62,017 bases of DNA from a virus (taxonomy: Duplodnaviria; Caudoviricetes): positions 1 to 62,017 of the IMG/VR virus record IMGVR_UViG_3300038530_002154; one strand, 5' to 3'. The notes under the pieces are model-generated. The model made no database searches. It was not told the DNA's origin and saw nothing but the letters and a program-made list of their open reading frames with translations. Of this stretch, positions 4,410 through 39,800 are shown in pieces. Every line of letters starts with the position of its first letter. Positions within the stretch are counted from its first letter, which is position 1. Made by a program: the position numbers and the translations under genes.

Positions 4410-7400
4410 TTAAATTATTACATACATTCTGTCGGCTAGTGGGCTTACAATTGCGTTATACTCTGCCTGAGTAAGAGTTACAATTTCTTTCACCGCTGTA
4501 GTTGATGACGATACTGTACCAGAACCTACTTTGTCTTGAAATGTATTATAGTCAGTTTGAGACAAATATCCATCTTGGCCTGCAGTTGCAACAGGAAGCG
4601 TTATATTCGGTGTTGCTCCTCCTGAGGATGCTAATGGGGCTGATGCCGTAACATCTGTAACCGTACCTGCGTTTGATGTATACCCCGCTGGGTTAGTTGC
4701 ATTGTATGGAGTAAATCCTAGTGCTCCTGTTACTGCTCCGCTTGTTAAACTTCCACTTAAAGTTATTGTTGGTGTAGTTGGATCATTATCACTTGTGATA
4801 CTAAGTCCTGCTACAGTGCCTGTTGCTGATACATCAGTAACTGTTCCGCCTCCACCTGAAGCTCCTGTAATAGTAACTGTTTTAACTCCTCCGTTAGCTG
4901 TTACTGCTGTTGTTACCGTACCCGCTCCAAGGAACCTTACTTCATCTGCATCATCTATTGTTTGTTGATTTCCTCCATCTCCTTCAATTACAAAATCATA
5001 ATTGTTTACTGCTGGGAAAGTTACTAAGTTTCCTTCACCATTAACATATTCACTTGATTGTCCATCAAATGAAAGTTGTAATGTTCCATTTGCTGTTATT
5101 GTATTTCCTGAAGTTGCATTTCCATCTGAAGCTAATGAAATACTTGTGATTCCACCGCCTCCACCTGTACCATTCGATGCTGCAGTTATTCTTCCTTGAT
5201 CATCTACCGTAATGTCTGCGTTTGTATAACTTCCTGCGGTTACTGCTGTGTCCTCAAGGGTAACAGTCACACCTAATGGCGATGCTGAAACGCTTGTGTC
5301 AATACCTGTTCCTCCTGATACTAAAAGCGTACTTCCACTGTTAACAGGTACAGGGTTTGTTGTTCCTGAGTCTGCTCCTAAGTTTAAAACAAAAGAACCT
5401 CCGCCTCCACCACCTGATATTGGGTTGACTGAAGATCCACTTCCTGTATTTATCTGAACTACTCCGTTATTAACAAATAACCCTCCTGTAGGAACTCCAC
5501 CCGCTTGTGCAGCTGCTTCGTTTGTGTAAGCAAAACCTGAAATGGTTGGCAACAATACTCTTGGTACTTGCGTCACACCACCACCTCTTGTTACTCCACC
5601 TTCTGTTATCAAAAGTGCATTAATATCATTTACCGTACCAACGCCTACTGTAAATTTAGTATATCCAAGACCTAAACTAAAGTTAGTGTTAGGATATGCT
5701 GTATTGTCGTTTCTAAATCCAATAGTCATATTTCCATCTGTACCATGCAGATTTCCACCTATCATGAATGAATTATTGGCAGGTTGTCCTGCAGGATCTA
5801 GTGATGGGCCCTCATTGTTTTCTCCAAAAGCAAACATAGAGTCTCCACCTGAAACAACATTAGAATATCCTAAAACAAATCCGTTTTGTTCTGTCGTAAC
5901 TTGGTTTTGTCCACCTGCAATAAAACTTGAATATGAATTTGTAAGGATATTTGTATTACCAATAATTGCAGATTGAACAGGTAAACTAATCGCTTGATTT
6001 ACTGTTACATCATTATTTGTTCCTAATACATATGTGCTAGAAACATCTCCAGTTAAAGAGTTGCCTTGTCCTGCTACTATTGAGTATTTAGTAAGGCTTG
6101 AAGTTGAATTGCCTAGACCTACATTTAAATTGTATGTCCCTTGTGCACCTCCCGCTCCTATGCCGTTTGGATTTGTTGAACCTAATAGTATATTATTACC
6201 ACTAATATTACCATTAGGACTTCCATTTCCTGAACTTTCATAATTTACCCAAAGTCCTCTATTTAATCGAATACCTCCACTAATTAGGTGAGCAAAATAA
6301 TTTGCCCTAAGACCTAAATCTCCTTGACCTATCGAAACTCCTCCTCCTGAACCTAAATACAATCTATTGTTTTGAGAGTTTCCTCCAATCGTAAGGTCGT
6401 TACCAACCATTACTGCTCCTAGTCTGCCTGCGTTTTCAAGGTCGTTACCAATGGCTAAGCTTTTTCTAGCTACATTGTTTGTTGTTATAGTAATTTGATT
6501 TCCTTCACCTAAAGCACCTGCGTTTCCTGATATTGTGTTTAATGCACCTATAGCAAAATTACCATTACCAGGTGTAGTTACTGCAATATCGTTTACAGAA
6601 TTTTGGAATCCTGATGTAAAATGACCAAAACCTTGGTCTTCATTAACTCTACTATTCCAGCCAATAGCTGCTGATCCTTGTGCGTTAGAAATAGTTCCAC
6701 TACCTATTGCGATAGATTGAAAAGCGGAAGCTGTACCTGTAAGCAATGCTAATGAAGAATTTCCATCAGCTTGTGCATTCGGCCCGATAGCTATTGCTTT
6801 ATCTCCTGTAGCCTCAGCTAAATATCCTATTGCAACTGAATCATCTCCGCTTGTCGAAGTCTCTGTTCCTATTGAAACACTTCTATTAGTATTTGTTGCT
6901 GATGTAGCCTCATTTCCAATTACTATTGAATTAGCGCCTCTTGCAAAAGAATCATTACCAATAATAAAAGATTCATTCGCATTTTGATTAGCATTTCTGT
7001 TACCAATAATGTAAGATCTATTGCTAGACATTTGAACAAAATTCTCTAGTCCAAGAACAATAGAATTGTTACTGCTTCCAACCGAACCATCAGCTCCTAT
7101 GTAAACACTTCCTGTTGAGGTACTATCTACAATTGCTCCACTACCTATAGCAACACTATCGGCTGCTTCTGCACGTGAAGATGAACCAAATGCAAAAGAA
7201 GTCGGGCCTTCTGCCTTACTTGCAGAACCTCCTGCAAAAGAAGCAGATCCGCTTGCTTCAACACTTGATCCTACAGCAAAAGATTGATCTCCTGATGCAA
7301 CTGACGCTGATCCAAGAGCAATTGATGTAAGTCCTGTCGCACTAGTTGACTTACCGAATGATAAGGCATATACTCCAGGCTTGGCATCTACACTGTCTCC

Positions 7401-14866: not shown

Positions 14867-15118
14867 TACAACGACTATATCTCGTTCTTGAATAATACTT
14901 ACCACGTCTTCATGCAACATCATTTTGTGTCCTGCTGCTTTGTCGTAATATATAATATCACCTTCCTTAACAACAGACACTTCAGTGCCTGGTAAAAGTA
15001 TCAATCCTTTTTTGTATCTTAGTTGGTTGCTATCTTCTGAAGTAAGCAAAATACCTGATTCAGTTTTTTGCTGCTCTTCAATTTCAGTTACAACTATATA
15101 CTTCCCTACTGCTTTCAT
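14861..15118 (-). CDS. groES: Co-chaperonin GroES
   Basis: KTESGILL mobile loop, VKEGDIIYY, IQERDIVVV. Confidence 0.9.
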   Translation of the reverse strand: MKAVGKYIVVTEIEEQQKTESGILLTSEDSNQLRYKKGLILLPGTEVSVVKEGDIIYYDKAAGHKMMLHEDVVSIIQERDIVVVL

Positions 15119-15246
15119 ACAACTTCTTTTTCGTGCACTTCGGTTTTATATATTTTATATCCGTTTTCCTTTAGAAGTTTAATGGCTTCTTCAACCTTTT
15201 TGTTTTCTTTTCTAAAGTGCTCGAATATTTGATTATGTATTACCAT
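15115..15246 (-). CDS. Small protein MVIHNQIFEHFRKE... (43 aa, not in track)
   Basis: Manual translation; ATGA overlap with groES. Confidence 0.7.
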   Translation of the reverse strand: MVIHNQIFEHFRKENKKVEEAIKLLKENGYKIYKTEVHEKEVV

Positions 15247-15266
15247 GATTTATATATTTAAATTAA

Positions 15267-15398
15267 CTATCTTCCTTGGCCTCTGTATCTTTTTAAATAG
15301 TTTTTACTATTTTTTACTTTGCTGCTTTTGGTCTTACAGTGTATACCTTTACGCTTACGACTTTTAGATTTATATTCAGCAAGAGTTATTTTAGCCAT
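15267..15398 (-). CDS. Small basic protein ending KRYRGQGR
   Basis: 43 aa from the ATG at 15398; very rich in Lys and Arg. Confidence 0.75.
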   Translation of the reverse strand: MAKITLAEYKSKSRKRKGIHCKTKSSKVKNSKNYLKRYRGQGR

Positions 15399-15687
15399 TA
15401 TTTTTATTTTTCTTTCTAAGGTCTTCTTTACCCTTTTTGAATATAGCAACTACTTTTGTTTTGCCCATGACTTTGGCTCTTTGTTCACCAACAGTTAGTA
15501 TTTGAATTTTTCTAGCAAAGGGTTTTTTTATTTTTTTCACCTTAGCTACTGTGGCTCTAGCGTCAGCAGGCGTGGCAAATTTTATACTTACTGTGTCTTT
15601 TGGGTTTTCATCAGTATACAGTCTACGGCCACTACCCTTTGGTTTTTTTCCAGTTCCTACTTTGGGATCTTTTTTCTTTTTAGCCAT
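15391..15687 (-). CDS. Basic protein (GTGKKPKGSGRRLYTDENPKDTV motif)
   Basis: 98 aa; overlaps the end of groEL. Confidence 0.8.
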   Translation of the reverse strand: MAKKKKDPKVGTGKKPKGSGRRLYTDENPKDTVSIKFATPADARATVAKVKKIKKPFARKIQILTVGEQRAKVMGKTKVVAIFKKGKEDLRKKNKNNG

Positions 15688-17257
15688 TTTTTCTTTTCAT
15701 TGTTACTATTGCGTTTGTTGTTAGTATAGTAGTTGCTACACTTACTGCATTTTTCAATGCGTTCTTTGTGACTTTGGCAGGATCAATGATTCCCATTTTA
15801 TACATGTCACCAAATTTTTTATTCTTTACATCATATCCATAATTGTATGGAACATCATTGCAATTACAAACCTCATCTCTAATTTTTTTTACGTCTTCAC
15901 CTGCATTGATAAGTATTTGCTCTATTGGTTTACACAATGCTCCGTATAATATGTCGCAAGCATGCCCTTCGTCTAAAAGTTCACCCGCTCTAAGCAGAGA
16001 TATTCCGCCTCCTGGAAGTATTCCTTCTTCAACGGCTGATCTTACAGCGCACACCGCATCTTCGATGCGGTCAAATTTTTCTTTTTGCTCAATATCCGAG
16101 TTTCCTCCAACATATAGCACGCCAACTCCCCCAGATAACAAAGCAATCCTATCATTTATAAATTCTTTCTCAGCTTTTATCTTATTATTGTCTCTTTGTT
16201 CCTTTAATTCTTCAATTCTTTGAGTTATTTGTGGATTTTCGCTGTGATTTGTTACAATCACGCTAGAATTTTGCCCAATAATTACTTTATCTGCGTGTCC
16301 AAGGTCTTGCATTGTCAATAATGCTAGGTTATCTCCTTGTGATTCGCTAAAATATGTGCCGCCTGTAGCCAAAGCTATGTCGGATAGCAGTTCATTTGTA
16401 CGATATCCAAACGAAGGTGGTATAATATTGCAAAGTTTTAGATTATTCTGCACAACATTTGCTGCAAGAGTGTTGACAACGCCCTGAACGCAGTTGCCTA
16501 TGATCAATAATTTTTTATTTTGGTTGATTACTGGCTTTAGCACTGATTCAATTTGAAGAATATTAGTAATCTCCATGTCTGTTATTAAAATCAACACATC
16601 ATCTAAAACACATTCATCGTTTCTTTGATTATTAATAAACAACTTAGAAGTATATCCTCTATCTACTTTGATTCCTTTTGTAATTTCATAATACGTTTCT
16701 TCTGTTTTGCTATTCTCAACAGTAAGAACTCCGTCTTTACCTAATTCTTTATAGGCATCAGCTATCATTTTCCCTAGATCCGCATCATTGTTGGCCGATA
16801 TGGTCGCCACATCTCTTAATGTTTTGCCTGTTACTTTCTTAGAGTTCTTTTCTAATCTTTTAATTATATTATTTGAGATTAGATTAATTTCTTTTACAAG
16901 TTCTGCCTTGTTGATATTCTCTTCTCTTTTAAATAACTGCAATCCTTCACGAACTATAGCCTCAGTAAGTACAATAGCTGTGGTTGTTCCGTCACCTGCT
17001 GAGTTTGCTGTTCGTTCCGCTGCCTCTTTCATCATTCTTACTGCAAGATTCTCAACTGAGTCCTCCAGGTCAATAGATTTTGCAACGGTGACTCCGTCTT
17101 TTGTTATGGTGATTCCGTGTGTGTGGTTTTGAGACTCAATCAAGACTGTTTGGCCTAGAGGGCCTAACGTACTCTTTACTGCTTTTGCTATCTTGCTGAT
17201 CCCTTTTAATAATTTATCTCTCCCCTCTTCGTCAAACGAAAGTATCTTTGGATTCAT
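15680..17257 (-). CDS. groEL: Chaperonin GroEL
   Basis: TLGP.G, ITKDGVTVAK, GDGTTT, ISAN.D, GILPGGG, GIIDP.KV; no GGM tail. Start reassigned to MNPKIL at 17257. Confidence 0.97.
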   Translation of the reverse strand: MNPKILSFDEEGRDKLLKGISKIAKAVKSTLGPLGQTVLIESQNHTHGITITKDGVTVAKSIDLEDSVENLAVRMMKEAAERTANSAGDGTTTAIVLTEAIVREGLQLFKREENINKAELVKEINLISNNIIKRLEKNSKKVTGKTLRDVATISANNDADLGKMIADAYKELGKDGVLTVENSKTEETYYEITKGIKVDRGYTSKLFINNQRNDECVLDDVLILITDMEITNILQIESVLKPVINQNKKLLIIGNCVQGVVNTLAANVVQNNLKLCNIIPPSFGYRTNELLSDIALATGGTYFSESQGDNLALLTMQDLGHADKVIIGQNSSVIVTNHSENPQITQRIEELKEQRDNNKIKAEKEFINDRIALLSGGVGVLYVGGNSDIEQKEKFDRIEDAVCAVRSAVEEGILPGGGISLLRAGELLDEGHACDILYGALCKPIEQILINAGEDVKKIRDEVCNCNDVPYNYGYDVKNKKFGDMYKMGIIDPAKVTKNALKNAVSVATTILTTNAIVTMKRKNG

Positions 17258-17279
17258 GTATATTAAATTTGATTTTAAG

Positions 17280-17287
17280 CAAAGATA
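17280..17287 (-). promoter_or_regulatory. Bacteroidota -7 promoter element TATCTTTG (groEL)
   Basis: 23 nt upstream of the ATG at 17257. Confidence 0.75.
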
Positions 17288-17302
17288 CAATAATTTTTGT
17301 AA

Positions 17303-17489
17303 ATGTCGTATGTCGTTTTTCTACGCTCCTATACTCTCATATAGTAAATACTGTTTTATAATTTTATTTTTTTTTATAATTACTATATAAAATTGACATA
17401 ATCGACATAAAATTGATAATCAAACAGTTAGAGTAAAAAAAATCAACATACTATTGACATGAGTCGACACAAAACCTAAAAAACGACAC
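17303..17489. repeat. Iteron-like heptamer array (TYGACAY-like) flanking an AT-rich core; putative replication origin
   Basis: ATGTCG at 17303 and 17310; TTGACAT 17393, TCGACAT 17402, TCAACAT 17443, TTGACAT 17454, TCGACAC 17464, ACGACAC 17483. Confidence 0.6.
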
Positions 17490-17521
17490 AAAAAAAAAGA
17501 GGTTGATTAGATCAACCCCTC
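17490..17521 (-). terminator. Rho-independent terminator
   Basis: Minus strand reads GGGGTTGAT-CTA-ATCAACCTC followed by a T9 run. Confidence 0.8.
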
Positions 17522-17555
17522 TTCCGTGAAACACAAATTAACTCTGGGAAGAAAG

Positions 17556-17762
17556 TTACTTGTAAATACTAAAGAAATTCTTTTTAGCCTCTGCGAGTTC
17601 CATTCCCTCAGCAATCATACTAATTTTTTTAGCACGTTCTTTTGCTTTTTTAAACTCAGCTAGTTTTTTAATTCCTGTTTCATAATAATTAAATCCACCT
17701 ACAAGCTCATGCCTGTTTCTTTCAGATAGATATTCTTTCATAATAGGCCTCTTAGTCATCAT
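17556..17762 (-). CDS. Hypothetical protein
   Basis: 68 aa, followed by a terminator. Confidence 0.7.
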   Translation of the reverse strand: MMTKRPIMKEYLSERNRHELVGGFNYYETGIKKLAEFKKAKERAKKISMIAEGMELAEAKKNFFSIYK

Positions 17763-17910
17763 TGTCTTGCCATTTAAAATTTAAACTTATGATCCCTAAA
17801 TAAATAATCAATTCATTGTAAGGATATTCTTCGTTTGCTCCGAAATAACTCCAGCCTAAGCTGAAACCTATCGAGAGTCTTTCTTGTATTTCTAATGTAA
17901 CTTCTTCCAT
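17752..17910 (-). CDS. Small protein MEEVTLEIQERLSIGFSLGWSYF... (52 aa, not in track)
   Basis: Manual translation; directly after a promoter. Confidence 0.7.
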   Translation of the reverse strand: MEEVTLEIQERLSIGFSLGWSYFGANEEYPYNELIIYLGIISLNFKWQDNDD

Positions 17911-17915
17911 AGCAA

Positions 17916-17923
17916 CAAATATA
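17916..17923 (-). promoter_or_regulatory. Bacteroidota -7 promoter element TATATTTG
   Basis: Only 5 nt before the 17910 start, so the transcript would be nearly leaderless. Confidence 0.6.
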
Positions 17924-18071
17924 CGAAAATATTTTTAAATATCAGATATAAATAGATTTTGGGTAATATATTGCTTTGACGCAACTCCATCATAATAATA
18001 ATTAATTTTTTTTTTGACACCCCCCCTCTAAAATTTTTTGCCTTGCCTCGATTTTTTTGGCTTTTTGTAGG

Positions 18072-18163
18072 GCACCCCCTCGCACCCTCACCCCCTCACC
18101 CCTCGCACCCCTTCCGCCCTCCCTTCCTCCGCCCTTTGCCCCTCACCCCTTCCCCCTTTGCCC
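18072..18163. repeat. C-run tract (G-rich on the minus strand)
   Basis: About 12 runs of 3-5 C in about 90 nt in an AT-rich genome. Confidence 0.85.
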
Positions 18164-18351
18164 TTCTTTTTTTTGTTGCATACCCAAAACAAAGAGGTAA
18201 TAAAAGCCGAATAATTAAAAGATATAAAACAAATTTACACTTTTAACGATTTTAAAATCTTTGAATAATCCGCAATAAAAAACTATAATTAATAAATAAT
18301 TCGCAAAGAAAATGTTAAATCCCCAGAAATTCCATAAAAATGCAGTAGTTA

Positions 18352-18384
18352 TTTGCTTTTTATATTTTTTTTATATTATATTTG
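18352..18384 (+). promoter_or_regulatory. Early promoter TTTG-N21-TATATTTG
   Basis: Full Bacteroidota -33/-7 consensus upstream of the first plus-strand gene. Confidence 0.8.
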
Positions 18385-18453
18385 TAGTAATTAAAAATGT
18401 GGTGAAGGGTGCACCACAATAAGCACCCAAAAATTAATTTAAATAATAATAAA

Positions 18454-18921
18454 ATGAGTACAATTAAAACTAATTCAGTTAAAAAAGTTGTTAAAGCAAA
18501 AAAGACAATAAGCAAAGCAACAAGAGAGGCAATAGCCAAAAAACGCGCTTTAAATCCGCAGTTTGCAATAGTGCAAAGTAACAGAAGGAAAGCGCAAAAT
18601 TTAGAGGTTAGAACGTCTCTAATTAATACACTTATAGAAGTGAAAAAAGATACATCTATTCAAATTGACTTAAGTTCGGTTGAAAATAAGGTGTATTTAA
18701 AAGAGTGTAAAACCCTAATCAATTACATTACTAAAGCCGAAAATAGAAGTAAGTTTTTGCCTCTCTTGATGCCTTTGGTAAGAGTAACGAAAAAAGGTCA
18801 CTTTGTGAAGTTTTACACTGAGCAAGCAATTCAAAAGGTTGTTAAATTGAAAATGACTAAAAACATGGACTATTTAACCGCTTTTAATGGGCTGAACGCA
18901 AAAAAATTGATTGAGGCGTAA
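18454..18921 (+). CDS. First early gene, basic hypothetical protein
   Basis: ATG at 18454 after an AT-rich leader; 155 aa. Confidence 0.8.
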   Translation: MSTIKTNSVKKVVKAKKTISKATREAIAKKRALNPQFAIVQSNRRKAQNLEVRTSLINTLIEVKKDTSIQIDLSSVENKVYLKECKTLINYITKAENRSKFLPLLMPLVRVTKKGHFVKFYTEQAIQKVVKLKMTKNMDYLTAFNGLNAKKLIEA

Positions 18922-19634
18922 CCCCCAGAATTAACCCCCTTTAAACGTGTTTAGCGCGTTGTAAAACTCATATTTTGAGGGGGTACAAAATACGTTCTTT
19001 GTCCTTTGGCGCATATGCGTGGGCACAATTCCGAAAGTGGTTAATCCCTTTGGAAGTTCTGAAAATATCCTTTGATTTTTCAGTGTTCCCGACAGACATA
19101 AAAACAAGAGAGAATAACTCCTATTGTTAGATAGTAGGTAAAGCAGTCGGCACCTATACGACATTAAACTCAAGATGGAAGGCTAAACTCTTGTTTTGAT
19201 TGGTGGAAACACAAAGAAATCAATGCGTTGATAATCTCCACGCAAGGGGGCGAAGTATGTCCATTGACTACTTACTGCTGTAAACTCTTGCACCAAGTGG
19301 CAAGTGCCCTGCGAGAAAATCATAGATATCTGAATACCTGCAAACATTGTGAGCAGAGGCTTGTTATGGTGTCGTTTATTAGTATCGCACCGAAGGCAAG
19401 GGTGACTTGTGTCTGCTCGGCACAAGTGGGACAGCTAACCTAGTCCCTGCAAACATCAAAACACAAACACAGACAATGACTTAATTGAAGTAGACAAATA
19501 CATCTTTGTTGAAACCTGGGGGTTGGAAATAGAGCCACACTATCAGGGCTACACTTGGGCTAATGAAACAGATAGGGAAGCAAAAAAAGTGAAACACAAA
19601 GGGCATGCACACGTAGAGAATATTGTGCATGCTC
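18922..19634 (+). ncRNA. Candidate large structured non-coding RNA (~710 nt)
   Basis: No credible ORF; visibly GC-richer than its flanks; more than 12 consecutive or nested helices with G-U pairs. Confidence 0.6.
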
Positions 19635-19655
19635 ACTAATTTTAATTTAATACAT

Positions 19656-19880
19656 ATGAGAACACGAATAAGAACGAACTCAGTTGCTAAAGTAGTAATT
19701 GAGCAAGAGGGCAAACGCCTGGAGACTCAAGAGGCCAGAGAGAAAGAACTCTATGGTTGGAAAGTCAGACAGATAATGACTGAACTAAATCTTACTTGGG
19801 AGCAAGGGAAAGCCGAATACAATAAGAGGAGAGTGGCAGGGGCGATCAGCAGAGGTATGCAAAACTTAAATATAACATAA
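19656..19880 (+). CDS. Early hypothetical protein
   Basis: ATG after the TTTAATTTAATACAT leader. Confidence 0.75.
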   Translation: MRTRIRTNSVAKVVIEQEGKRLETQEAREKELYGWKVRQIMTELNLTWEQGKAEYNKRRVAGAISRGMQNLNIT

Positions 19881-19881
19881 T

Positions 19882-20022
19882 ATGACACACAAAGTATTAT
19901 CAACAGGACTGCACACAATCATTGACAACAATGGTAGAGTGCACGTATTCACAGAAGAGGAATACACTCACCTATCGTGGTGGAAGCAAATCAAAATCAA
20001 GTTTAATTTTAAATCAATATAA
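19882..20022 (+). CDS. Small early protein MTHKVLSTGLHTIIDNNGRVHVFTEEEY... (46 aa, not in track)
   Basis: Manual translation; fits exactly between its neighbours. Confidence 0.7.
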   Translation: MTHKVLSTGLHTIIDNNGRVHVFTEEEYTHLSWWKQIKIKFNFKSI

Positions 20023-20024
20023 TT

Positions 20025-20252
20025 ATGGAAGCAATCATTCAAGAAGTAAAATCAATTTACAAATCAACACAAGTAAGAGACAGACAAGGCAGAGTCTTGA
20101 CAAGTTTCACGGGCAGACTATGGTCACTCATTCTATTCATAGCAATGTTAGGACTGATGACTATGGCAATCACGGGAATACTATTCATGATAGGTGGACT
20201 TATCTTTGGATATATAGACGCAAGTAACGCAAACTTTGGAATTTACGGATAA
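20025..20252 (+). CDS. Early membrane protein
   Basis: Long hydrophobic segment LWSLILFIAMLGLMTMAITGILFMIGGLIFG. Confidence 0.75.
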   Translation: MEAIIQEVKSIYKSTQVRDRQGRVLTSFTGRLWSLILFIAMLGLMTMAITGILFMIGGLIFGYIDASNANFGIYG

Positions 20253-20267
20253 TAAAAATAGACAATC

Positions 20268-20408
20268 ATGTATAATATAATTTATAGTAGTCGGTGGGGC
20301 AACGAGATAGTTGATACTGCAGACAATAAAAAAGAGGCTGAATACTTACGCAAAGAGTATATGTTAGCATTCAATAGTTTTAATATAGAAGTCGAATTAA
20401 ATAAATAA
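20268..20408 (+). CDS. Small early protein MYNIIYSSRWGNEIVDTADNKKEAEYL... (46 aa, not in track)
   Basis: Manual translation. Confidence 0.7.
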   Translation: MYNIIYSSRWGNEIVDTADNKKEAEYLRKEYMLAFNSFNIEVELNK

Positions 20409-20410
20409 AA

Positions 20411-20707
20411 GTGGGAAAAATAATTAAGAAAGCAAGGGTGGTAAAAAACCCACCAACCTTTGATTGGATAAACAAAGGTGATAGATTAAAAGTCATAGAG
20501 GTAAACTGCCTATTGGTAGAACCTTGGCACTTGTCGGAAAGTTGTTTTCATAAGTGGTATTGGTACGGACAACCAATGGACAGGAATAAAAATATGAAGG
20601 CAAGGTTCAAAGAGGGGAGTTATTACATAGTGTCAGTAAACGGAATGAAATGTAGCACAGCATTTTACTTAATAAACAAAGAATACTTATCATTTAAAAA
20701 TAAATAA
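20411..20707 (+). CDS. Early hypothetical protein
   Basis: 98 aa, GTG start, packed in the operon. Confidence 0.7.
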   Translation: MGKIIKKARVVKNPPTFDWINKGDRLKVIEVNCLLVEPWHLSESCFHKWYWYGQPMDRNKNMKARFKEGSYYIVSVNGMKCSTAFYLINKEYLSFKNK

Positions 20708-20709
20708 AT

Positions 20710-20868
20710 ATGGAAACAGAAATTACAGAAATAAAAAGAAACCTAAACATTGTAAGAATGTTCTCGCCAGGATCACATCAATTTGATCAAGCGAACAAGA
20801 TACTGAACAAGTATCACAGAAAGTATGGAACAGTAGACACAAGTATAATTGAAAATATATTGAGATGA
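20710..20868 (+). CDS. Small early protein METEITEIKRNLNIVRMF... (52 aa, not in track)
   Basis: Manual translation; ATGA overlap with the next gene. Confidence 0.7.
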   Translation: METEITEIKRNLNIVRMFSPGSHQFDQANKILNKYHRKYGTVDTSIIENILR

Positions 20869-21062
20869 ATATAGTATATGGTAGTAATGTTATCATTGAT
20901 AGAGAGGCAATGATAGACAGCAATTTAACAGACAACAAGGGGATTGTATTAAAACTATGGAATGAACCCCTTAAAAATTCACAATCCACCCCATTGGCTA
21001 AAATACTTTTAGATGATGGCACAATAGCAGTTGTAGGACAACATGAAATTAAAAAGAAATAG
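20865..21062 (+). CDS. Early hypothetical protein (SH3-like beta pattern)
   Basis: 65 aa; GIVLKL...AKILLDDGTIAVV. Confidence 0.7.
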   Translation: MNIVYGSNVIIDREAMIDSNLTDNKGIVLKLWNEPLKNSQSTPLAKILLDDGTIAVVGQHEIKKK

Positions 21063-21064
21063 AC

Positions 21065-21340
21065 ATGAAAGCAAACAATTTAATTATTGACGGAGTAGAT
21101 TACATTGGAACATTTTATAATGAAATAAAAGGAGATGTAAGTAAAGAAATGTATGTTCAACATGATGATGACGAATGGAGTGAAGTAGAGGAGTTTGGAT
21201 ATACAAAGATAGCGTATAAAGATATAGGTTTCTTTACAGGTTGGATAGAGTATGATAAAGTAAAAGCAGTTAAGATAAGAGTCTATCGAACTACCTTAGA
21301 TGATTATATTGAAGATGTACAAGAATATATATATAAATAA
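21065..21340 (+). CDS. Early acidic hypothetical protein
   Basis: 91 aa; packed in the operon. Confidence 0.75.
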   Translation: MKANNLIIDGVDYIGTFYNEIKGDVSKEMYVQHDDDEWSEVEEFGYTKIAYKDIGFFTGWIEYDKVKAVKIRVYRTTLDDYIEDVQEYIYK

Positions 21341-21349
21341 AGAGATAAA

Positions 21350-21520
21350 ATGAAAGTAAAAGTAATCAATACAGAAGGTTTAGATAAAGAAACTATTGAC
21401 AAAATAGAAAGCCACATGCAATTCAATCGTTGGTATTATGAATACGATACGGAATTCGCAGAACTTGAAAACACGAGGGGAGACATCATAAGAATATTTC
21501 CTGAAAGAATAGAATTTTAA
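21350..21520 (+). CDS. Small early protein MKVKVINTEGLDKE... (56 aa, not in track)
   Basis: Manual translation. Confidence 0.7.
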   Translation: MKVKVINTEGLDKETIDKIESHMQFNRWYYEYDTEFAELENTRGDIIRIFPERIEF

Positions 21521-21531
21521 AACTAATAAAT

Positions 21532-21756
21532 ATGAAGAACATACAAAGCAGAGGCACATATACTGATGTGCAAGAAACATACACCTTATCAATAGACTAC
21601 ATGTATTATAGAGTTTGGGGAGACTACGAGTATCCTGGAGACGAGGACTTGGAAATAGTAAATGTATATATAGACGATACAGACATCACAGATTTCTATT
21701 GGGATAGACTAGATTGCTATGATGAGGTAGTACAATATGCAAGAGAGAACGTGTGA
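21532..21756 (+). CDS. Early acidic hypothetical protein
   Basis: 74 aa; GDYEYPG...EIVNVYIDDTDIT. Confidence 0.75.
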   Translation: MKNIQSRGTYTDVQETYTLSIDYMYYRVWGDYEYPGDEDLEIVNVYIDDTDITDFYWDRLDCYDEVVQYARENV

Positions 21757-21836
21757 TTGTTCACACTCATCTTGCGAGGGAAGGTAAAGGGGTAGCCGAA
21801 AACCTTAAAGAGTAGGCACAATTTAATTTAATACAT

Positions 21837-23117
21837 ATGAATACAGAAGAAGTAGAAGAACTCATCTATGTAGAGATAGATGGGGAAAAGTATCTTATGG
21901 AAGATACCGTGGAGTCGGTACACCTCAACGAGAGGATACCGAAAGATCAGGCTCAACGAGTAATCAACGAGCATGATGAAGACGATTGGATTTGGGACAA
22001 TGACAATCTTGATTTCAATTGGGCAAGAGACGAGGGGTTGTATATACACCCCGACCTAGGTTTCTATGACTCAGTAGAAAACTGTTTCTACTATGACACA
22101 GATTACATGGTAACGTCCTATTGTGGAGAGACGCTCCATGAAACCAATGCAGACGGCAGTAACGAGTGGGTGTATGTTGAGCGAGGTATAGCAGATGGAA
22201 GTTATGTGTGGTATGAGAACTGTACATGGTGCGAGGACATTGAAGAATATGTTCACGAGGATGATGCCGTGTATTGTGAGAGAGACGAGTGCAGTTATTG
22301 GGATGAAGAAAACATGCCCGAGGATGAAGACGAAGAGTGCATCAACCCATATCACACAAGCAGGGGGTTTGTTCGACACATTGTTGGTGGCAGTGAATTT
22401 ACCATTGGGTTTGAGGTTGAAAAGTTACACTTTGAAGTAAACGGTGGTGACGCCAGTGATGAAGGTGACTATGTGGGATCTCATGCGCTGTTTGCAGGAT
22501 ACGAATGCGACAGCTCGTGTGGTGTAGAGGCAGTGTCACACATCTTGCCTTTGAATGGCCCTAGACACCCAAATAGGAACAAACTGTTTGAGTACATGGA
22601 TGAGGCAAGTGAGATCATCAACAGTCCCTCAGACAAGTCTTGTGGTGGACACATCACAATAGCAGTCAAAGGAGAGTATGATGGCTACAATGTTGTAGAC
22701 AAAATGCGACAGCCCTTGGCTTTGATATACGCACTATACAGGTGGAGGCTCAAGCGAAGTTATTGTGAGAACAACAAGCCCGCTAAGAAAGAGAACAACT
22801 ACAAGTATTCACCTGTGCATGTAAAGTCAGGTGGCAAGGTTGAACTCAGACTACCCTCAGCTGTAAAAAACGTCAAGCAGTTGAAACTCAGATATGATTT
22901 GATGTATAAGATTATGTATCATTCATTCAAAAGACCTGTGAGTTTTGAGGTCTTTCTCCAGAAGGTCAGACACATTGTAAAGAAAATGTACAATGGCAAC
23001 GACACCAAGGTAGACTTTATCTATGATGTTGCTAGAGACTTCAGGAGATACCTCATAGCAGAGGAGATTACAGATAGAACAGACGAATATATTAACCCTA
23101 AAAGAGAGGAAGAATAG
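21837..23117 (+). CDS. Putative amidoligase (COOH-NH2 ligase, glutamine-synthetase-like fold) with an acidic Cys-containing N-terminus
   Basis: IGFEVE, DSSCGVEAVS, SCGGHITI and VELR motifs. Confidence 0.8.
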   Translation: MNTEEVEELIYVEIDGEKYLMEDTVESVHLNERIPKDQAQRVINEHDEDDWIWDNDNLDFNWARDEGLYIHPDLGFYDSVENCFYYDTDYMVTSYCGETLHETNADGSNEWVYVERGIADGSYVWYENCTWCEDIEEYVHEDDAVYCERDECSYWDEENMPEDEDEECINPYHTSRGFVRHIVGGSEFTIGFEVEKLHFEVNGGDASDEGDYVGSHALFAGYECDSSCGVEAVSHILPLNGPRHPNRNKLFEYMDEASEIINSPSDKSCGGHITIAVKGEYDGYNVVDKMRQPLALIYALYRWRLKRSYCENNKPAKKENNYKYSPVHVKSGGKVELRLPSAVKNVKQLKLRYDLMYKIMYHSFKRPVSFEVFLQKVRHIVKKMYNGNDTKVDFIYDVARDFRRYLIAEEITDRTDEYINPKREEE

Positions 23118-23119
23118 AT

Positions 23120-24136
23120 ATGTGTATAATAATAATTAAAAACAACAAGAAGCTCATCAAAACAGAAACACTGATGGCTTCAGCACTCAAGAATCAAGAC
23201 GGACTTGGTATCTTGTGGCTAGACAAGTGGGAAGTAACATTTCATGATAGCGCAGACTACATGCAACTAAAGACCACTAGACCATTCATTGCTCACTTCA
23301 GATACGCAACAGTAGGTGAGGTAAGCAAAGCAAACTGCCATCCCTTTGATATCAACGAGGATGAGATACTATTTCAGAACGGCACAGTCTACGGACTTGG
23401 CAACAAGAAAAAGACAGACACTCAGCACATGGCAGAGATACTCGCTGACTTGCCACGCAAGAGATGGAAGAGTGTATTGGAGATGAATGACTCAAGATTT
23501 GTTACAGCAAACCTTAAGAAGAAAACATTTCAAGTATACAACAAGCAGGATTGGACTACTAAAAACAAAATTATGTATAGTAAAAACAATGTGCTAGACA
23601 TGACACTGATAGGCGTGTATGGAACACTAAAGAAAGGCTACTCAAACTACCACAACTACCTAACAAGGGCTTGTTACGTAGGTAGTGGAGAGACAGTAGA
23701 CAAGTATCCTATGGTCATAGACGGCATACCATTTCTTATCAACAGGCCAGGGGAAGGACATAATGTAGACATTGACTTGTTCTTAGTGACAGGAGATCAG
23801 CTCATGGACATTGACATGCTTGAGGGTAATCCTAATTGGTATGAACGCAAAAAGGCTGAGGTAATTACAGACAAGGGCAATGTGTTCTTGCCGTACATAT
23901 ACTTCAACGACACGAGAGACACAGGAGTGTATCACAAAACCTATACTCAACAACCTATCTACAACAGTTACAGTGGATACAATCGAGGATGGGATTATGT
24001 AGATGAGTATTGTGAGTGCGAGAACCCACAATTTATCAAAGACTATGGTGATGAATTCTGTGATATTTGTTACGGAGAGAGACCTCCGCAACAAGACTAT
24101 CATTGGCAGACTAACCAATGGAGACACTTAAAATAA
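23120..24136 (+). CDS. Class II glutamine amidotransferase fused to gamma-glutamyl cyclotransferase (AIG2/GGCT)
   Basis: N-terminal MC, HFRYAT, HPF, NGT, TDT; then GVYGTLKKG and DMLEG.P.WYER. Confidence 0.88.
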   Translation: MCIIIIKNNKKLIKTETLMASALKNQDGLGILWLDKWEVTFHDSADYMQLKTTRPFIAHFRYATVGEVSKANCHPFDINEDEILFQNGTVYGLGNKKKTDTQHMAEILADLPRKRWKSVLEMNDSRFVTANLKKKTFQVYNKQDWTTKNKIMYSKNNVLDMTLIGVYGTLKKGYSNYHNYLTRACYVGSGETVDKYPMVIDGIPFLINRPGEGHNVDIDLFLVTGDQLMDIDMLEGNPNWYERKKAEVITDKGNVFLPYIYFNDTRDTGVYHKTYTQQPIYNSYSGYNRGWDYVDEYCECENPQFIKDYGDEFCDICYGERPPQQDYHWQTNQWRHLK

Positions 24137-24151
24137 CTTAAATAAAACAAT

Positions 24152-24436
24152 ATGACAATAGAAAATTTTAAATGGACAGATGAACTTGTAATGAGATTTG
24201 ATGGATGGCTGTTTACATACGGCATGAGAAAAGAAGATAAAATACAAGAATTCAAAGAAATGATAATTAGAGAAATTAATAATAAACAAAAATTAATAAA
24301 TATGAAACACAAAGAGAACTCAAGCAAGCAAGTATTAGAATGGTATGACAATTTTGTAGACTATGTGATGCAATACTACAGCAATATATATAACTCAGCA
24401 TGTGAGTATGCTGATCTAAAAGAACAAGAAAAATGA
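24152..24436 (+). CDS. Hypothetical protein
   Basis: 94 aa; possible internal start at 24302. Confidence 0.65.
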   Translation: MTIENFKWTDELVMRFDGWLFTYGMRKEDKIQEFKEMIIREINNKQKLINMKHKENSSKQVLEWYDNFVDYVMQYYSNIYNSACEYADLKEQEK

Positions 24437-24633
24437 AAGTAATAATAAAAACAATAGATGGTTCAAGAACCATTGAGGACATGAGATACAAAATAGAGTC
24501 TTGTGCTGACACAGTTATAGACAACATAGAACTTATGCAGTATGTCTATGATGAGTTTGGTCACGACTTAGATGTCCACGAGGCCGAGAGACTCGCTAAT
24601 ATAGTGTATCAACAAATTAAATATAGAATGTAA
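24433..24633 (+). CDS. Hypothetical protein
   Basis: 66 aa; ATGA overlap. Confidence 0.75.
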   Translation: MKVIIKTIDGSRTIEDMRYKIESCADTVIDNIELMQYVYDEFGHDLDVHEAERLANIVYQQIKYRM

Positions 24634-24635
24634 TT

Positions 24636-25292
24636 ATGCCAAATCATGTATTCGCACACATATCGGTTGAAAAAAAGTATGCCGATAAGCTGAGAGAAAT
24701 CTCAAAGGTAGGGCTGTGCAGACACTACCTTCCAATGCCTAAAGGGTTAGATCTCTTTCAATGGTACAACACAAGCCACCCTGACCATCAGTATGATCAA
24801 AAGGGTTGGTCAAAGTTTCAAGATGAACAAAAAGAGTGGATAGAACATCAAAAAGCGTTCAACAAAGCCCAACATGGCGCTGAAGATTGGTATATGTGGG
24901 CAATCAATAATTGGGGAACAAAGTGGGGTTGTTATGAAACACACTTTCATGAAGATGATGAAATGGCTCACTACTCGTTTTCTACAGCTTGGTCACCTAT
25001 ATCACCAAGAATTATGGATATGTTTATGAAAGACATACCATCATTTACATACGATTGGGAAGAAGAGCAAGGCTATGGTGAATCTCACAAGGTAAAAGAT
25101 GGAGAGTTCGTTGAGTTTGAGGAGTGGGATTTGCCTGAATGGGATTACAAAGACGAGTATGACCGTTTATATAAACTCAAAAAGCCATACAAAAAATTTG
25201 GTCAGACATACCGCCCAGGTTTTTATCTTGATGCGGATTTGCAAATTTTTATGGGAGATAGGCTTAAAGATGCATTGAAGCGAGTTGAATAA
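24636..25292 (+). CDS. DUF1281 / Api92-YubB-like ferredoxin-fold protein
   Basis: MPNH, WY.W...NWGTKW, F.TAWSP and EEEQG motifs. Confidence 0.8.
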   Translation: MPNHVFAHISVEKKYADKLREISKVGLCRHYLPMPKGLDLFQWYNTSHPDHQYDQKGWSKFQDEQKEWIEHQKAFNKAQHGAEDWYMWAINNWGTKWGCYETHFHEDDEMAHYSFSTAWSPISPRIMDMFMKDIPSFTYDWEEEQGYGESHKVKDGEFVEFEEWDLPEWDYKDEYDRLYKLKKPYKKFGQTYRPGFYLDADLQIFMGDRLKDALKRVE

Positions 25293-36847: not shown

Positions 36848-39800
36848 TTAGAGCTTGCTCTTGACGTTTAACTTATTCTTTTGTAGTTTCGGTTTTTGAT
36901 TAAGAGGCCCCTCGTCTTTCAGTGTCTTTCTTGGTTCAGGTTCTTCTAACTTTCCAGGATCTATAGGTTTCATTTTTTTCAAATCTCTAAAAACTCTTTC
37001 GCTCATATATCCCACTTCTGATAAAGGAATTAAATTCATCAAGTGAAGAGCATAAATAATCGCTGTATTGTTTAATTTATCTTGAGCGCTTTTAGATATT
37101 TTTGACTTCTTGCCAAATCTGTTTGTATATTCACCTGTTTGTGCAATCATAATCATGTCTTTTAAGGTAGTAAGTTTCTTACCACCTATACCCAAAACAC
37201 CCAACTGATCCACAAGTTCTTTGTCAGTATTTGCAAAAAACTTCCACGGGTTTTCTTCACCTTCTTGAACAATGTTTAAAAAGTAGTTTGCTGAATTTAG
37301 TAGTATATCGTTTGCTGGAGGAAGCGGTGATATAATATCTGCTACCACATTACCCAATCTTCCCTTTATTTGATTCTGTAATCTTTTGTCTTGTTTCTCT
37401 CTAGCTTCCATTCTTTTTTCCCACTCAGGTCTCATATCCTCTTCGTCCTCTCCCGCAAAACCTTCTGCTAATTTTGATAGCATTGAAGATATGGCTAAAC
37501 CTAAAGCATTAAACATTGTGGTTTCCACTCCTAAACCTGCTAAAGATCTCGCAGCTCTTGCTTTGTCGCCAGGTAATGCAGTAGGGTTGTTCACTAGTGT
37601 ATTTATGTCAGCATACATTCTAGTTTTTTGATTTAGTAAAAAGTTAGAAAATGGTAAAAGGGTTTTTCTAATAACTGAGGTTGTAAGGTTGTTGCTTGTA
37701 AATGCACCACCCTGCAAGTCTTGGTCTGAGGCGTTTTGCTGTCTGTCAACTTGTTGTTGTGCATAATCTAAACTAGATTGATTTAAAGGCTTGCTCCAAT
37801 CTATTTCATTAGAAGGAACACCTCTTTTTGCTTCAGCTTGAATATAATACGCAATAAAAGATGCTCTTGCAGTTCCAACATCGGGATCTACAAGTGTCTT
37901 TTGTAAAATGTATTTGTTTACTTTATCAAATCCATCTACTACTTTTTTGCCTGCTTTTTTAGTTTTATTAATGACACCTTTTTCATCACCAATTCTTGTG
38001 TCGTTTTCAATTTGACTATTTAAAGAATTTAAGTCCGCTTGAGATTGCACACCTCTGTTTGCTATAGGCATGCCTGAATTATCTAAGGCTTTTGACACCA
38101 CAGGATCAAACACAAGTTTTGAACCTAACAATGTATTAACTGCACCTGCATTTGTTAGTGTGTTGAATATAGGAATCATTTGTTTAAATGGTTGTGTTAT
38201 ACCACCAAGTGCACGAACAACACCAAAGGTTGCTATCTTATCTACTGCATTTAATACTGATGAGTCTTCTTTATTATATTCACCAATACCTCTTTTTTTG
38301 TCTACATATAAATTAATCCTATCGTCTAAAATTTTTCTGGACTGATCGTTTGGAAATACTTTTTTGAATGCATCAGATTCTCTAGCCCCTTTTATTTGCT
38401 GAATAGAGGGAGCTGTAAATATATCAGTCAAAGCTGCTTCATAGTTGTTTAGGTTTTGTCTGTCAAAATCTAAATTTAGTATTCTGTTTTTTGGCAAAGA
38501 TTTTGGTTTGGTTGCCTCCTTCAAAATTCCTGCTTCTTTATCATAAGCGCTTCTTCTATTTCCTTCAGGATTAAACATTGGCTCTGTTATATCTCGTGTG
38601 CTTTCTTCTGGGTTTACTCTAATAACATTTCTAGGTGTATAGTTTATGTCTTTTCCTAAATTCCTATTATATATATTTAAAGAGGTGTCTGCTAAATCTC
38701 CATATTTATTAGCCCACATTTCAGTTATATAATTTACTCCCTCAAGGTTTACAGGATCTACTTTAGATTCTACATCGTTTATAGTTTCAGAATCTGCCAA
38801 TAGTTTATCGTAAGACTCTTTAATTAACTCTCCCTTTTTTATGTTGTTGGGATCCTTGCTTTCTAAAAGTCTTTCGTATGTTTCTTTTACAAGGCCTTTG
38901 CTTTTCTCAAACTCTGCCTGTTGTTCAGCCTCTGTTCCAGGCGATACTCTTCTTACCTCAGCCAATACACCTCTTTCTGTGTTGTTGTTTGCGTCAAAAT
39001 ATTTACCATTTTGCATTTTTTTCTTTCTAAATGCGTCTGCATAATCAGACTCCGCTCTATTGGCTTCAGATCTTGCCTTGTTTGCTCCATTAATTAAATC
39101 CTGAATACCCAAAGCTTTCATTACCTTAAGGCCTTTAGATTGAGACTTAAACATTAAATCAAACGCATTTGGAAGGGTTGCTATGTATTTATTCCATGCT
39201 CTTCCAATCCACCCGCTATTTTCTTTCGATTTTATATTTTGTTTTTCTAAGCCAATCATCCCTTTATTTCCTCGATACTGACTTAACACAGCCTGCATAC
39301 CTCCTGTAGATTGATTCATTTCAAAATTTATTATTGAATCTAACACAGCCATTTTTTGTGCAGTGCTTAAAAGATTTAAATCCATGTTTAAAAAATCCCT
39401 CACAAGATCTTTATTTCTTTTACTAAGTTCTAGGTCGCCACTTTCAATATCTCCTTTGATGTTAACCTTTATGTTGTTAAAAGCGTTTTTGATAGCTTTA
39501 TCTACTTCTTTTTCTTTATTTTTTTCAAACTCCGCTTTTGCTTCAGGGCTCATTTGTTTTCCTTCAATTTCATATAAAGCCTCTCTAACTTGCTCAAGAG
39601 TAAGTTCTGTAGGATCTAAACCTGTTAGTTCCTGGAAAGATTCTTTTGCTAATTCATAGTTAGCCTTCTTTTGACTATCTATCTCTTTTTTACTGTAATT
39701 GTTGATATTCTTAATATCAAAAGGTTTACTTGTTTGAAGCCCTTTTTTAGTTTTCTTGGTTTTTTTGAGACCGTCTTTTACTGCTTGTGCTTTTTCTAAG

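Follow-up and report, generated by a model that had tools for sequence, protein, structure and literature searches.

What fills the 734 nucleotides (nt) between the first two rightward genes of a virus genome in which no gene was called? The stretch analysed, called the window throughout, is the 62,017-nt IMG/VR virus record IMGVR_UViG_3300038530_002154 (positions 1 to 62,017), and the gene-free interval runs from the stop codon of an open reading frame (ORF) for a basic 155-residue protein to the next ATG at 19656 (positions 18922-19655). A preliminary description, made from the letters of the window, had proposed for this place an undescribed structured non-coding RNA (ncRNA) of about 710 nt in the earliest transcript. 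By comparison with homologous loci, positions 18934-19639 (+) were shown to hold a conserved non-coding structured RNA of ~705 nt, which starts 13 nt past the stop codon and belongs to a family that is, as far as the searches made here reach, previously undescribed. It is read as a new plus-strand structured RNA because it is conserved in more than 50 loci, because its pairs carry compensatory changes and an excess of G-U, and because neither a coding signal nor a match to Rfam 15 was found; on all these points the proposal of a new large RNA held. The proposed size was also borne out, the molecule closing with a conserved terminal hairpin and an ACTAA that ends at 19639. From 5' to 3', the fold was shown to comprise a 5' hairpin, a set of variable hairpins, a junction, a domain with an H-type pseudoknot, 3' hairpins, a tail and the terminal hairpin.

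Relatives of the RNA and its non-coding character

Loci were fetched via the basic protein, whose gene (18454-18921, +) was always directly 5' of the RNA, and 6 IMG/VR and 62 metagenome loci were obtained. With window positions 18925-19480 as nhmmer query, homologous DNA was found directly 3' of the protein gene and on the same strand, even where protein identity was 42-52%. The distinct full-length copies of the RNA numbered 36, at 47-80% identity to the window; identity across the junction domain and the pseudoknotted domain (D2 and D3) equalled or exceeded that of the gene in five of nine loci compared, the gene being higher in the other four. Three covariance models were built, R1 for the junction domain, R2 for the pseudoknot domain and R3 for the 3' domain. 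R1 gave 51 matches (window score 104.9 bits at 19092-19202), R2 found the RNA in 50 of 56 sources, 10 of them divergent loci from outside its seed (window score 102.5 bits), and R3 matched 47 of 47 sources. Where a protein-bearing locus had at least 600 nt of downstream sequence, R1 or R2 matched in 51 of 52 cases, and the remaining locus (L068) was matched by R3. A search that started from the RNA motif added two IMG/VR contigs: L196, with a diverged homologue of the protein right upstream of the RNA (34.5% identity, E 3e-8), and L178, which ends too early for an upstream gene call. The motif, which comes from D3, was present in 21 IMG/VR stretches, and of the 23 sources scanned only 3 proved real.

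MW202828.1 and NC_055853.1 (Flavobacterium phage elemoF), complete relatives and the nearest records by primase, lack both the RNA and the protein, and no match was found among 50,697 phage records by blastn of 18400-20100 or by tblastn of the basic protein. Bacterial or prophage copies were considered and rejected: a 17-mer from hairpin B of the junction domain occurs in 96 genome contigs, and an R1 scan of these bacterial stretches together with four more IMG/VR loci (100 sources) gave no match. Because none of them matches R1, the 17-mer matches were attributed to chance. The carriers of the RNA family are marine crAss-like podophages that stand close to phages of Flavobacteriia.

Each of the six frames between 18850 and 19700 contains 12-21 stop codons, and with TAA, TAG and TGA all present in every frame, no stop reassignment would open one. 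Overlapping ORFs in the interval reach 30-80 residues only, and some short ORFs inside the RNA are spurious. Substitutions were counted by codon position against four close relatives; in the flanking gene they fell as 21/14/68, 18/6/52, 23/13/64 and 18/13/70 on first, second and third positions, and in the RNA interval as 26/26/25, 24/31/21, 25/31/21 and 39/31/23, without a third-position excess. Stop-codon reassignment occurs in some crAss-like phages, which would lend a recoded gene some plausibility, but the three stop types in six frames and the flat substitution pattern leave a decayed or recoded protein-coding gene a negligible chance, and as far as sequence can tell it was rejected. The GC content of the interval is 0.39-0.44, against 0.25-0.32 upstream and ~0.40 over ~300 nt downstream, so the earlier statement that it is GC-richer than its flanks holds for the upstream flank and fails for the downstream one.

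Known RNA families were searched in Rfam 15, which covers among others GOLLD, ROOL, OLE, HEARO, raiA, RNase P, transfer-messenger RNA (tmRNA), 6S, SRP and group I/II introns. At gathering cut-offs the sole match in the full window was DUF805b at 21786-21818, outside the RNA; with E up to 10, nine weak matches were returned for 17900-20100, none to a large-RNA family and none within ~20 bits of its cut-off, and loci from nine relatives gave 0 matches. A known family was accordingly rejected, and the earlier judgement, made by eye, that intron, tmRNA and RNase P hallmarks are missing was upheld by covariance-model search. ARAGORN found 0 transfer RNA (tRNA) or tmRNA genes in the window, L002 and L003. 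A tmRNA was rejected on this result and the empty Rfam search, and also on the acceptor strands at the 3' end of the relatives, which lie next to each other and do not close the molecule. In the 62-kb genome no match was obtained to PF05731 (Ro60/TROVE), which did match control genomes, or to PF00078 (reverse transcriptase), so that neither a Y RNA (YrlA)/Ro60 system nor the template of a retron or diversity-generating retroelement was indicated. No description of the RNA was found by the literature searches made.

Secondary structure and its support

Base pairs were counted on alignments of distinct sequences with two controls, shuffled partners (500 shuffles) and slid partners; for each domain the proportion of paired cells, the pairs with double (compensatory) changes and the covariation score against the highest score of the slid control are given below. 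In every domain counted, the observed covariation score was reached by 0 of 500 shuffles. The long-range helices escaped RNAalifold when raw MAFFT alignments were used, owing to register shifts in those alignments. Compensatory changes were found in all counted domains, as the proposal of a structured RNA had predicted, and its remark that mismatches read as G-U on the plus strand was confirmed: variable pairs of D2 held 48 G-U/U-G cells against 13 A-C/C-A cells, and this excess agrees with a plus-strand RNA. Nine helices of the preliminary description were confirmed in all; it included neither the pseudoknot nor the tRNA-like module at the 3' end of the relatives. From the alignment, a secondary structure with ~20 helices and one pseudoknot can already be put to the test.

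The central junction D2 (19101-19197, +) is closed by a helix of 19101-10 with 19188-97. It encloses hairpin A (19120-26 / 19132-38, with conserved UUGUUAGAUAG), a short helix AGC 19142-44 / GCT 19182-84, hairpin B (GTCG 19146-49 / CGAC 19159-62, loop GCACCUAUA) and the conserved strand AUUAAACUCAAGAUGGAAG at 19163-81. On the raw MAFFT alignment A4, 77.8% of cells were paired and 16 of 23 pairs compensated (0.425, slid maximum 0.245); on the model-aligned A5 (41 distinct sequences) the values were 92.9% and 18 of 23 (0.666, slid maximum 0.12). Covariation was strong on both for the helices first drawn as AAAACAAGAG/CTCTTGTTTT (19101/19188), CCTATTGT/ATAGTAGG and GTCG/CGAC. An optional extra hairpin, ACAAGGGTA...TGCCCTTA or ATTGGGCAA...TTGCCCTA, was seen in the junction domain of 18 of 36 sequences; it lies ~20-25 nt past hairpin B in the L006, L007 and L008 clades, and its stem covaries between clades. 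The stretch around 19203, where a GTG-GAAA-CAC hairpin had been noted, differs between clades.

The pseudoknotted domain D3 (19221-19358, +) was defined with the R2 model and counts on A7. It is built of Px (CAATG 19221-25 / CATTG 19345-49), Py (TGAT 19229-32 / ATCA 19319-22), Pz (GCAAGGG 19242-48 / CTCTTGC 19285-91), Ph1 (19253-57 / 19269-73, then, after a bulged U19258, 19259-61 / 19266-68), Ph2 (19296-301 / 19306-10) and the pseudoknot stem S2 (CCTGC 19337-41 / GCAG.G 19353-58), with a conserved stretch UAGAUAUCUGAAUACC at 19323-38. On A7 (model-aligned, 46 distinct sequences) 88.5% of cells were paired and 33 of 35 pairs showed double changes (0.561, slid maximum 0.101). S2 was counted on A7 columns that the model leaves unpaired, and was still 91.7% paired with 4 of 5 pairs changed (0.328, slid maximum 0.11); as its loop includes the 3' strand of Px, the arrangement is an H-type pseudoknot. 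The helix TGCGT/ACGCA (19224/19240), proposed for this region, found no support and is probably wrong, since it competes with the covarying Px, Py and Pz. The repeat CCTGCAAACAT does occur twice (19337 and 19446) as described, the second copy not being retained in the closest relative.

The 5' hairpin H1 (18934-18984, +) has an outer stem ACCCCCTT 18934-41 / GAGGGGGT 18977-84, an inner stem 18945-49 / 18955-59 and a conserved asymmetric loop GUAAAACUCAUAUUUUG. On A9 (34 distinct sequences, raw MAFFT) it was 90.5% paired with double changes in 9 of 13 pairs (0.441, slid maximum 0.171), and the outer stem that had been predicted at 18934/18977 therein proved to covary. It is followed by a clade-variable region (19009-19083, +) of three hairpins, Ha (GCGC 19009-12 / GCGT 19017-20), Hb (TTCCGAA 19029-35 / TTTGGAA 19049-55) and Hc (CTGAAAA 19059-65 / TTTTCAG 19077-83), which on A13 (13 sequences, raw MAFFT) were 86.7% paired with 12 of 18 double changes (0.394, slid maximum 0.115). 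Two of the helices in this region, TTCCGAAAG/CTTTGGAA (19029/19048) and CTGAAAA/TTTTCAG (19059/19077), had been named beforehand and covaried across the 13 sequences; different hairpins occupy the equivalent place in other clades. The small motif GGUUAAUCC, which becomes GGUCAAUCC in the divergent group, forms hairpin loops in different domains of the same RNA in several clades: in the window at 19040-19048, in the D3 hairpin of L002, L011, L012 and L014, and in the L010 group.

The 3' domain D4 (19360-19447, +) is the least supported. It consists of Pd1 (CTTGTT 19360-65 / GGCAAG 19395-400), Pd1b (19368-74 / 19386-91), Pd2 (ACTTGTGTC 19405-13 / GGCACAAGT 19419-27) and Pd3 (GGGAC 19428-32 / GTCCC 19443-47); 66.5% of cells were paired on A8 (raw MAFFT; 16 of 26 pairs, 0.248, slid maximum 0.151) and 76.8% on A12 (model-aligned, Pd3 outside the model; 12 of 17 pairs, 0.397, slid maximum 0.192). 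The predicted helices CTTGTT/GGCAAG and ACTTGTGTC/GGCACAAGT were supported on both alignments, and GGGAC/GTCCC solely on the raw A8, in those sequences that possess the helix. In L015 (3393-3543) and its clade (L016-L019, L024, L028 and L030), an insertion of ~50 nt, ATCGAAGACAACACGAGAGGACGAGTTCCCTTGTCGGTTTAGTAGGGAAG, stands within helix Pd1 and looks like an extra clade-specific arm. The tail (19448-19600, +) begins with an A-rich linker and continues with a module common to the window and seven relatives (alignment A10), in which CTATC 19540-44 and GATAG 19571-75 flank GGGCUACACUUGGGCUAAUGAAACA, followed by GGGAAG..AAAAAGUGAAACACAA; in L018 the stem reads CTCTC/GAGAG (alignment only).

At the end of the RNA, GGGCATGCACA and TGTGCATGCTC pair as an 11-bp hairpin; its 12-nt loop CGUAGAGAAUAU is conserved, and ACTAA follows (19601-19639, +). 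On A11 (8 sequences) the hairpin proper (19601-19634) was 96.6% paired with 6 of 11 pairs changed (0.568, slid maximum 0.182), so that the helix predicted at 19601/19624 is a covarying one. All 43 distinct loci examined at this end carry a terminal helix of 11-12 bp with NCUAA or AUCUA behind it. A canonical T-loop (GGTTCGAATCC type) closes this helix in 24 loci and the 12-nt loop of the window type in 8, while 11 have another loop on a plain minihelix. In most T-loop loci an acceptor-like stem of 7 bp is added, and a short linker takes the place of the D and anticodon arms. The element of L007 (4674-4719) scored 28.5 bits with the Rfam tRNA model (cut-off 29, E 0.0011), the alignment being confined to the acceptor and T arms, and 17.6 bits (E 1.2) with that of mascRNA, a tRNA-like element considered at the end of this paper. 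Its D region is reduced to 4 nt and its anticodon region to 3 nt, and from its sequence it is classed as tRNA-like, not as a tRNA. On A14, 100% of cells in the tRNA-like stems were paired, with double changes in 7 of 12 pairs. Four forms of the 3' element were seen at the loci inspected (L007 4674-4719, L002 ~5008-5075, L006 ~4645-4690, and L028, L030 and L196): an acceptor stem with short linker and T arm, a form with a 31-nt linker, a bare 11-12-bp minihelix with a T-loop, and a minihelix with another loop. Compared with a tRNA-like minihelix of ~12 stacked bp and a 7-nt T-loop of the UUCGAAU type, the window has 11 bp and the 12-nt loop CGUAGAGAAUAU, in the same place and with the same trailing ACTAA as the T-loop-bearing relatives. 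Because place, helix length and trailing NCUAA are common to both, the terminal hairpin of the window is interpreted as the variant present here of a 3' module that runs through the whole family and is, in most of its members, an acceptor/T-arm mimic.

Transcription, upstream protein and genome setting

A promoter-like site of Bacteroidetes type, TTTG-N21-TATATTTG, was found by pattern search at 18352-18384 (+), with a spacing and motifs that we take to be the Bacteroidetes consensus; matches to the pattern number 12 in the window, where 5.35 would be expected, and the interval 18454-19656 is free of them. The site is likely to be the start of a transcript that bears both the basic-protein gene and the RNA. 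With this site upstream and no second one before 19656, the placement of the RNA in the earliest transcript is plausible. At 18398-18418, where the 5' leader of the basic-protein gene is predicted, a hairpin GTGGTGAAGGGTGCACCAC is terminator-like on the minus strand. Among the public runs listed, 20 contain some portion of the stretch, six of them being RNA libraries. In X14 and X15, from one sample, a 216-nt contig covers 19021-19233 without mismatch, their other pieces in 15000-25000 being 21-33 bases each; X12 holds contigs at 18853-19044 and 19267-19430 as well as over downstream early genes, and X18 holds one at 19436-19580. Parts of 15000-25000 that the RNA-library contigs leave uncovered carry no information.

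The basic protein has 63 homologues, from marine sources, in a large protein collection. Its AlphaFold2 model (predicted local distance difference test, pLDDT, 84.2; predicted template modelling score, pTM, 0.71) has seven helices and a Lys/Arg-rich N-terminal tail of ~20 residues at low confidence; in the model this tail is compatible with nucleic-acid binding. With the model as Foldseek query, no PDB match was returned at E <=0.001 (best 0.93), and BFVD gave only the protein's own record. Sequence searches of Pfam, PHROGs, PDB profiles and the Atlas likewise yielded no relative. Protein and RNA were not seen apart among the loci examined, and the genomic association makes the protein a possible partner of the RNA, as had been suggested.

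The virus record is a complete genome of 62 kb. Its structural module contains a crAss-type muzzle domain together with virion and portal proteins by PHROG match, and its primase is closest to that of the uncultured podovirus MW202828.1 (66.6% identity), those of Flavobacterium, Maribacter, Polaribacter and Nonlabens phages being remoter; from these matches the phage is read as a marine crAss-like podophage of Flavobacteriia. Gene blocks diverge around the locus, leftward left of ~18030 and rightward from 18454, the basic protein being the first rightward gene. In the divergent intergenic region between the blocks, the tract 18040-18175 (~135 nt) has an extremely high C content on the plus strand (GC skew ~-0.5), with CCCTCGCACCC- and CCCTCACCCC-like units. 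Further along, the DUF805b RNA match (RF02914, 21786-21818, +, 47.1 bits, cut-off 35.6) stands directly 5' of a 426-residue ORF (21837-23117) without Pfam family. Elsewhere the genome encodes a Cpn60/GroEL-type chaperonin (15680-17257, -, E 2.4e-53), the protein with the crAss muzzle C-terminal domain (47183-47968, -) and a 2289-residue protein without Pfam family (36848-43717).

Competing explanations and known systems

As a whole the locus is best explained, and probably correctly, as the source of an early, stable, trans-acting RNA or ribonucleoprotein (RNP) with a tRNA-mimic 3' end. The RNA would probably be co-transcribed early with the basic-protein gene from 18352-18384, and a stable form would accumulate. 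A role of the terminal acceptor-stem-like helix in defining or protecting the 3' end of the RNA, with host RNase P, 3' trimming and CCA addition as activities that could recognise what in most relatives is a true acceptor/T-arm mimic, is argued by analogy with MALAT1/mascRNA and stands a little below an even chance. More tentatively, the mature RNA is proposed to act in trans upon a target of the host or the phage, for which a particle with the basic protein is the likeliest form and an RNA-only assembly the alternative. An unlikely extension would be a new phage RNP, composed of the RNA and the fold-orphan protein and delivered or made at the outset of infection, whose acceptor mimic engages the tRNA-processing, aminoacylation or ribosomal machinery of the host; it might, for instance, inhibit a tRNA-directed defence, act as its decoy, or be a catalytic RNA. 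If true, this would be a mode of host take-over undescribed for any DNA phage.

Several observations weigh against this explanation or the evidence for it. For 713 nt, the minimum free energy z-scores against just 20 shuffles were -1.74 (+) and -1.41 (-), and when 200 shuffles were used for 19092-19362 they came to -0.07 (+) and -0.44 (-), so that the suggested folding test was not significant for the full stretch or for D2-D3; because the folding energy is no better than that of shuffles, the claim of structure beyond chance is founded on covariation. There, A5, A7 and A12 were fitted to models that bear the structure themselves, which inflates pairing (raw MAFFT: D2 77.8%, D4 66.5%), and the sequences share descent, while the statistics carry no phylogeny-aware correction. 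Expression is suggested by assembled contigs in RNA libraries of three studies, which give no strand, ends or level and among which DNA carry-over is possible, and a consensus scan of 17300-20300 found no intrinsic terminator-like site on the plus strand. The terminal hairpin of the window has no T-loop, and its reading as a tRNA mimic is for that reason carried over from the relatives. As to the protein partnership, Pfam, PHROG, PDB profile and Atlas searches identified no RNA-binding family or fold, and the argument is one of co-occurrence alone, a pattern that adjacency inherited as a block would equally give.

The lack of a recognisable RNA-binding fold would suit an RNA-only machine that self-assembles like ROOL and GOLLD and to which the neighbouring protein is unrelated, and so would the genomic habit, a large, pseudoknotted RNA with a tRNA-like element adjoining, as it is given for those RNAs in the sections consulted of PMC12286853. 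Such a machine is nevertheless unlikely here: no ROOL or GOLLD match was obtained at E up to 10, protein and RNA were never found apart, and the palindrome AGAUAUCU of the window, which by eye is AGAUAACU in other clades, is not kept across clades, no clade-wide palindromic loop having been seen. Its position only 13 nt past a stop codon, without a promoter-like site in between, and the extension of X12 contigs over downstream early genes would also be expected of a cis-acting untranslated region (UTR), either the 3' UTR of the basic-protein mRNA or the leader of the downstream early genes, controlling stability, termination or translation; yet a fold of 700 nt that combines ~20 helices with a pseudoknot and has a tRNA-like module at its 3' end goes far past known cis-regulators, and the RNA is kept while the downstream gene changes (other ORFs follow it in L014, L016 and L024), which makes a cis role improbable.

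Phages carry group I introns, and the size and pseudoknotted core are in the group I range. A self-splicing intron or other self-processing ribozyme interrupting a gene is nonetheless very improbable, as searches at E up to 10 gave no group I/II match, no reverse transcriptase was matched in the genome, and conservation extends to the C-terminus and stop of the upstream ORF as well as to a separate ATG of the downstream ORF. No contig joining the 18921 side to the 19640 side was seen in the RNA libraries, although contigs can miss joins. At the equivalent place in the RNA-less MW202828.1 stands an ORF unrelated to either flanking ORF, which argues that no gene is split; with the flanking ORFs complete and independent, an intron splitting one gene was rejected. 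A DNA-level element (replication origin, packaging or recombination site) whose inverted repeats mimic RNA helices would be well placed near the switch in transcription direction and the C-rich tract at 18040-18175, but hardly credible in view of the one-strand tolerance of G-U (48 against 13 A-C), the covariation of long-range nested helices and of the pseudoknot, and the pieces found in RNA libraries.

The finding has consequences beyond this genome. Large, intricately folded ncRNAs are rare, and to our knowledge each class so far (rRNA, RNase P, group I/II introns, tmRNA, OLE, GOLLD, ROOL) has been catalytic or architecturally unprecedented. A well-supported new class of that size is now added, from abundant uncultured marine crAss-like phages, tied to one orphan protein and usually with a tRNA-mimic end, and the three covariance models can be used for finding further members. 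'Intergenic gaps' of metagenomic phages can thus conceal major RNA genes that are overlooked by gene callers and Rfam.

A survey of structured RNA candidates in IMG/VR (Fremin et al. 2023, PMC10690425) is similar in its source and its covariation evidence; the candidates in the portion of it that was available are 29-151 nt long, and therefore at most fragments of the present RNA could be among them. ROOL and GOLLD are, according to the parts used of PMC12286853, phage-encoded RNAs of hundreds of nt with many helices and pseudoknots and of unknown function, often located beside tRNAs or tRNA-like elements, and form RNA-only cages; to judge from the same parts, the RNA described here resembles them in being large, multi-domain, pseudoknotted and phage-borne with a tRNA-like element adjoining. 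It differs in that no covariance-model match was obtained at any threshold tried, in its sequence motifs, and in being found here only in marine crAss-like podophages related to Flavobacteriia phages and always after one protein gene; it is, moreover, known from sequence alone. In eukaryotes, MALAT1 and MEN-beta are long RNAs whose tRNA-like 3' element (mascRNA in MALAT1) is cut by RNase P. The relatives show the same order of a long RNA and, at its end, a small tRNA-like element without anticodon arm, although they are phage RNAs, the mascRNA model gave 17.6 bits only and the window hairpin has no T-loop. With tmRNA the family has in common an acceptor/T-arm part without anticodon arm that is joined to a pseudoknot-rich RNA, whereas its acceptor strands are 14-31 nt apart at the 3' end and no tag reading frame was recognised. 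OLE is a large conserved RNA of bacteria (Bacillota) that is linked to dedicated small proteins; although the present RNA has no sequence match to it, is phage-borne and has a protein link that is genomic only, it is like OLE a large structured RNA genetically tied to a small protein.

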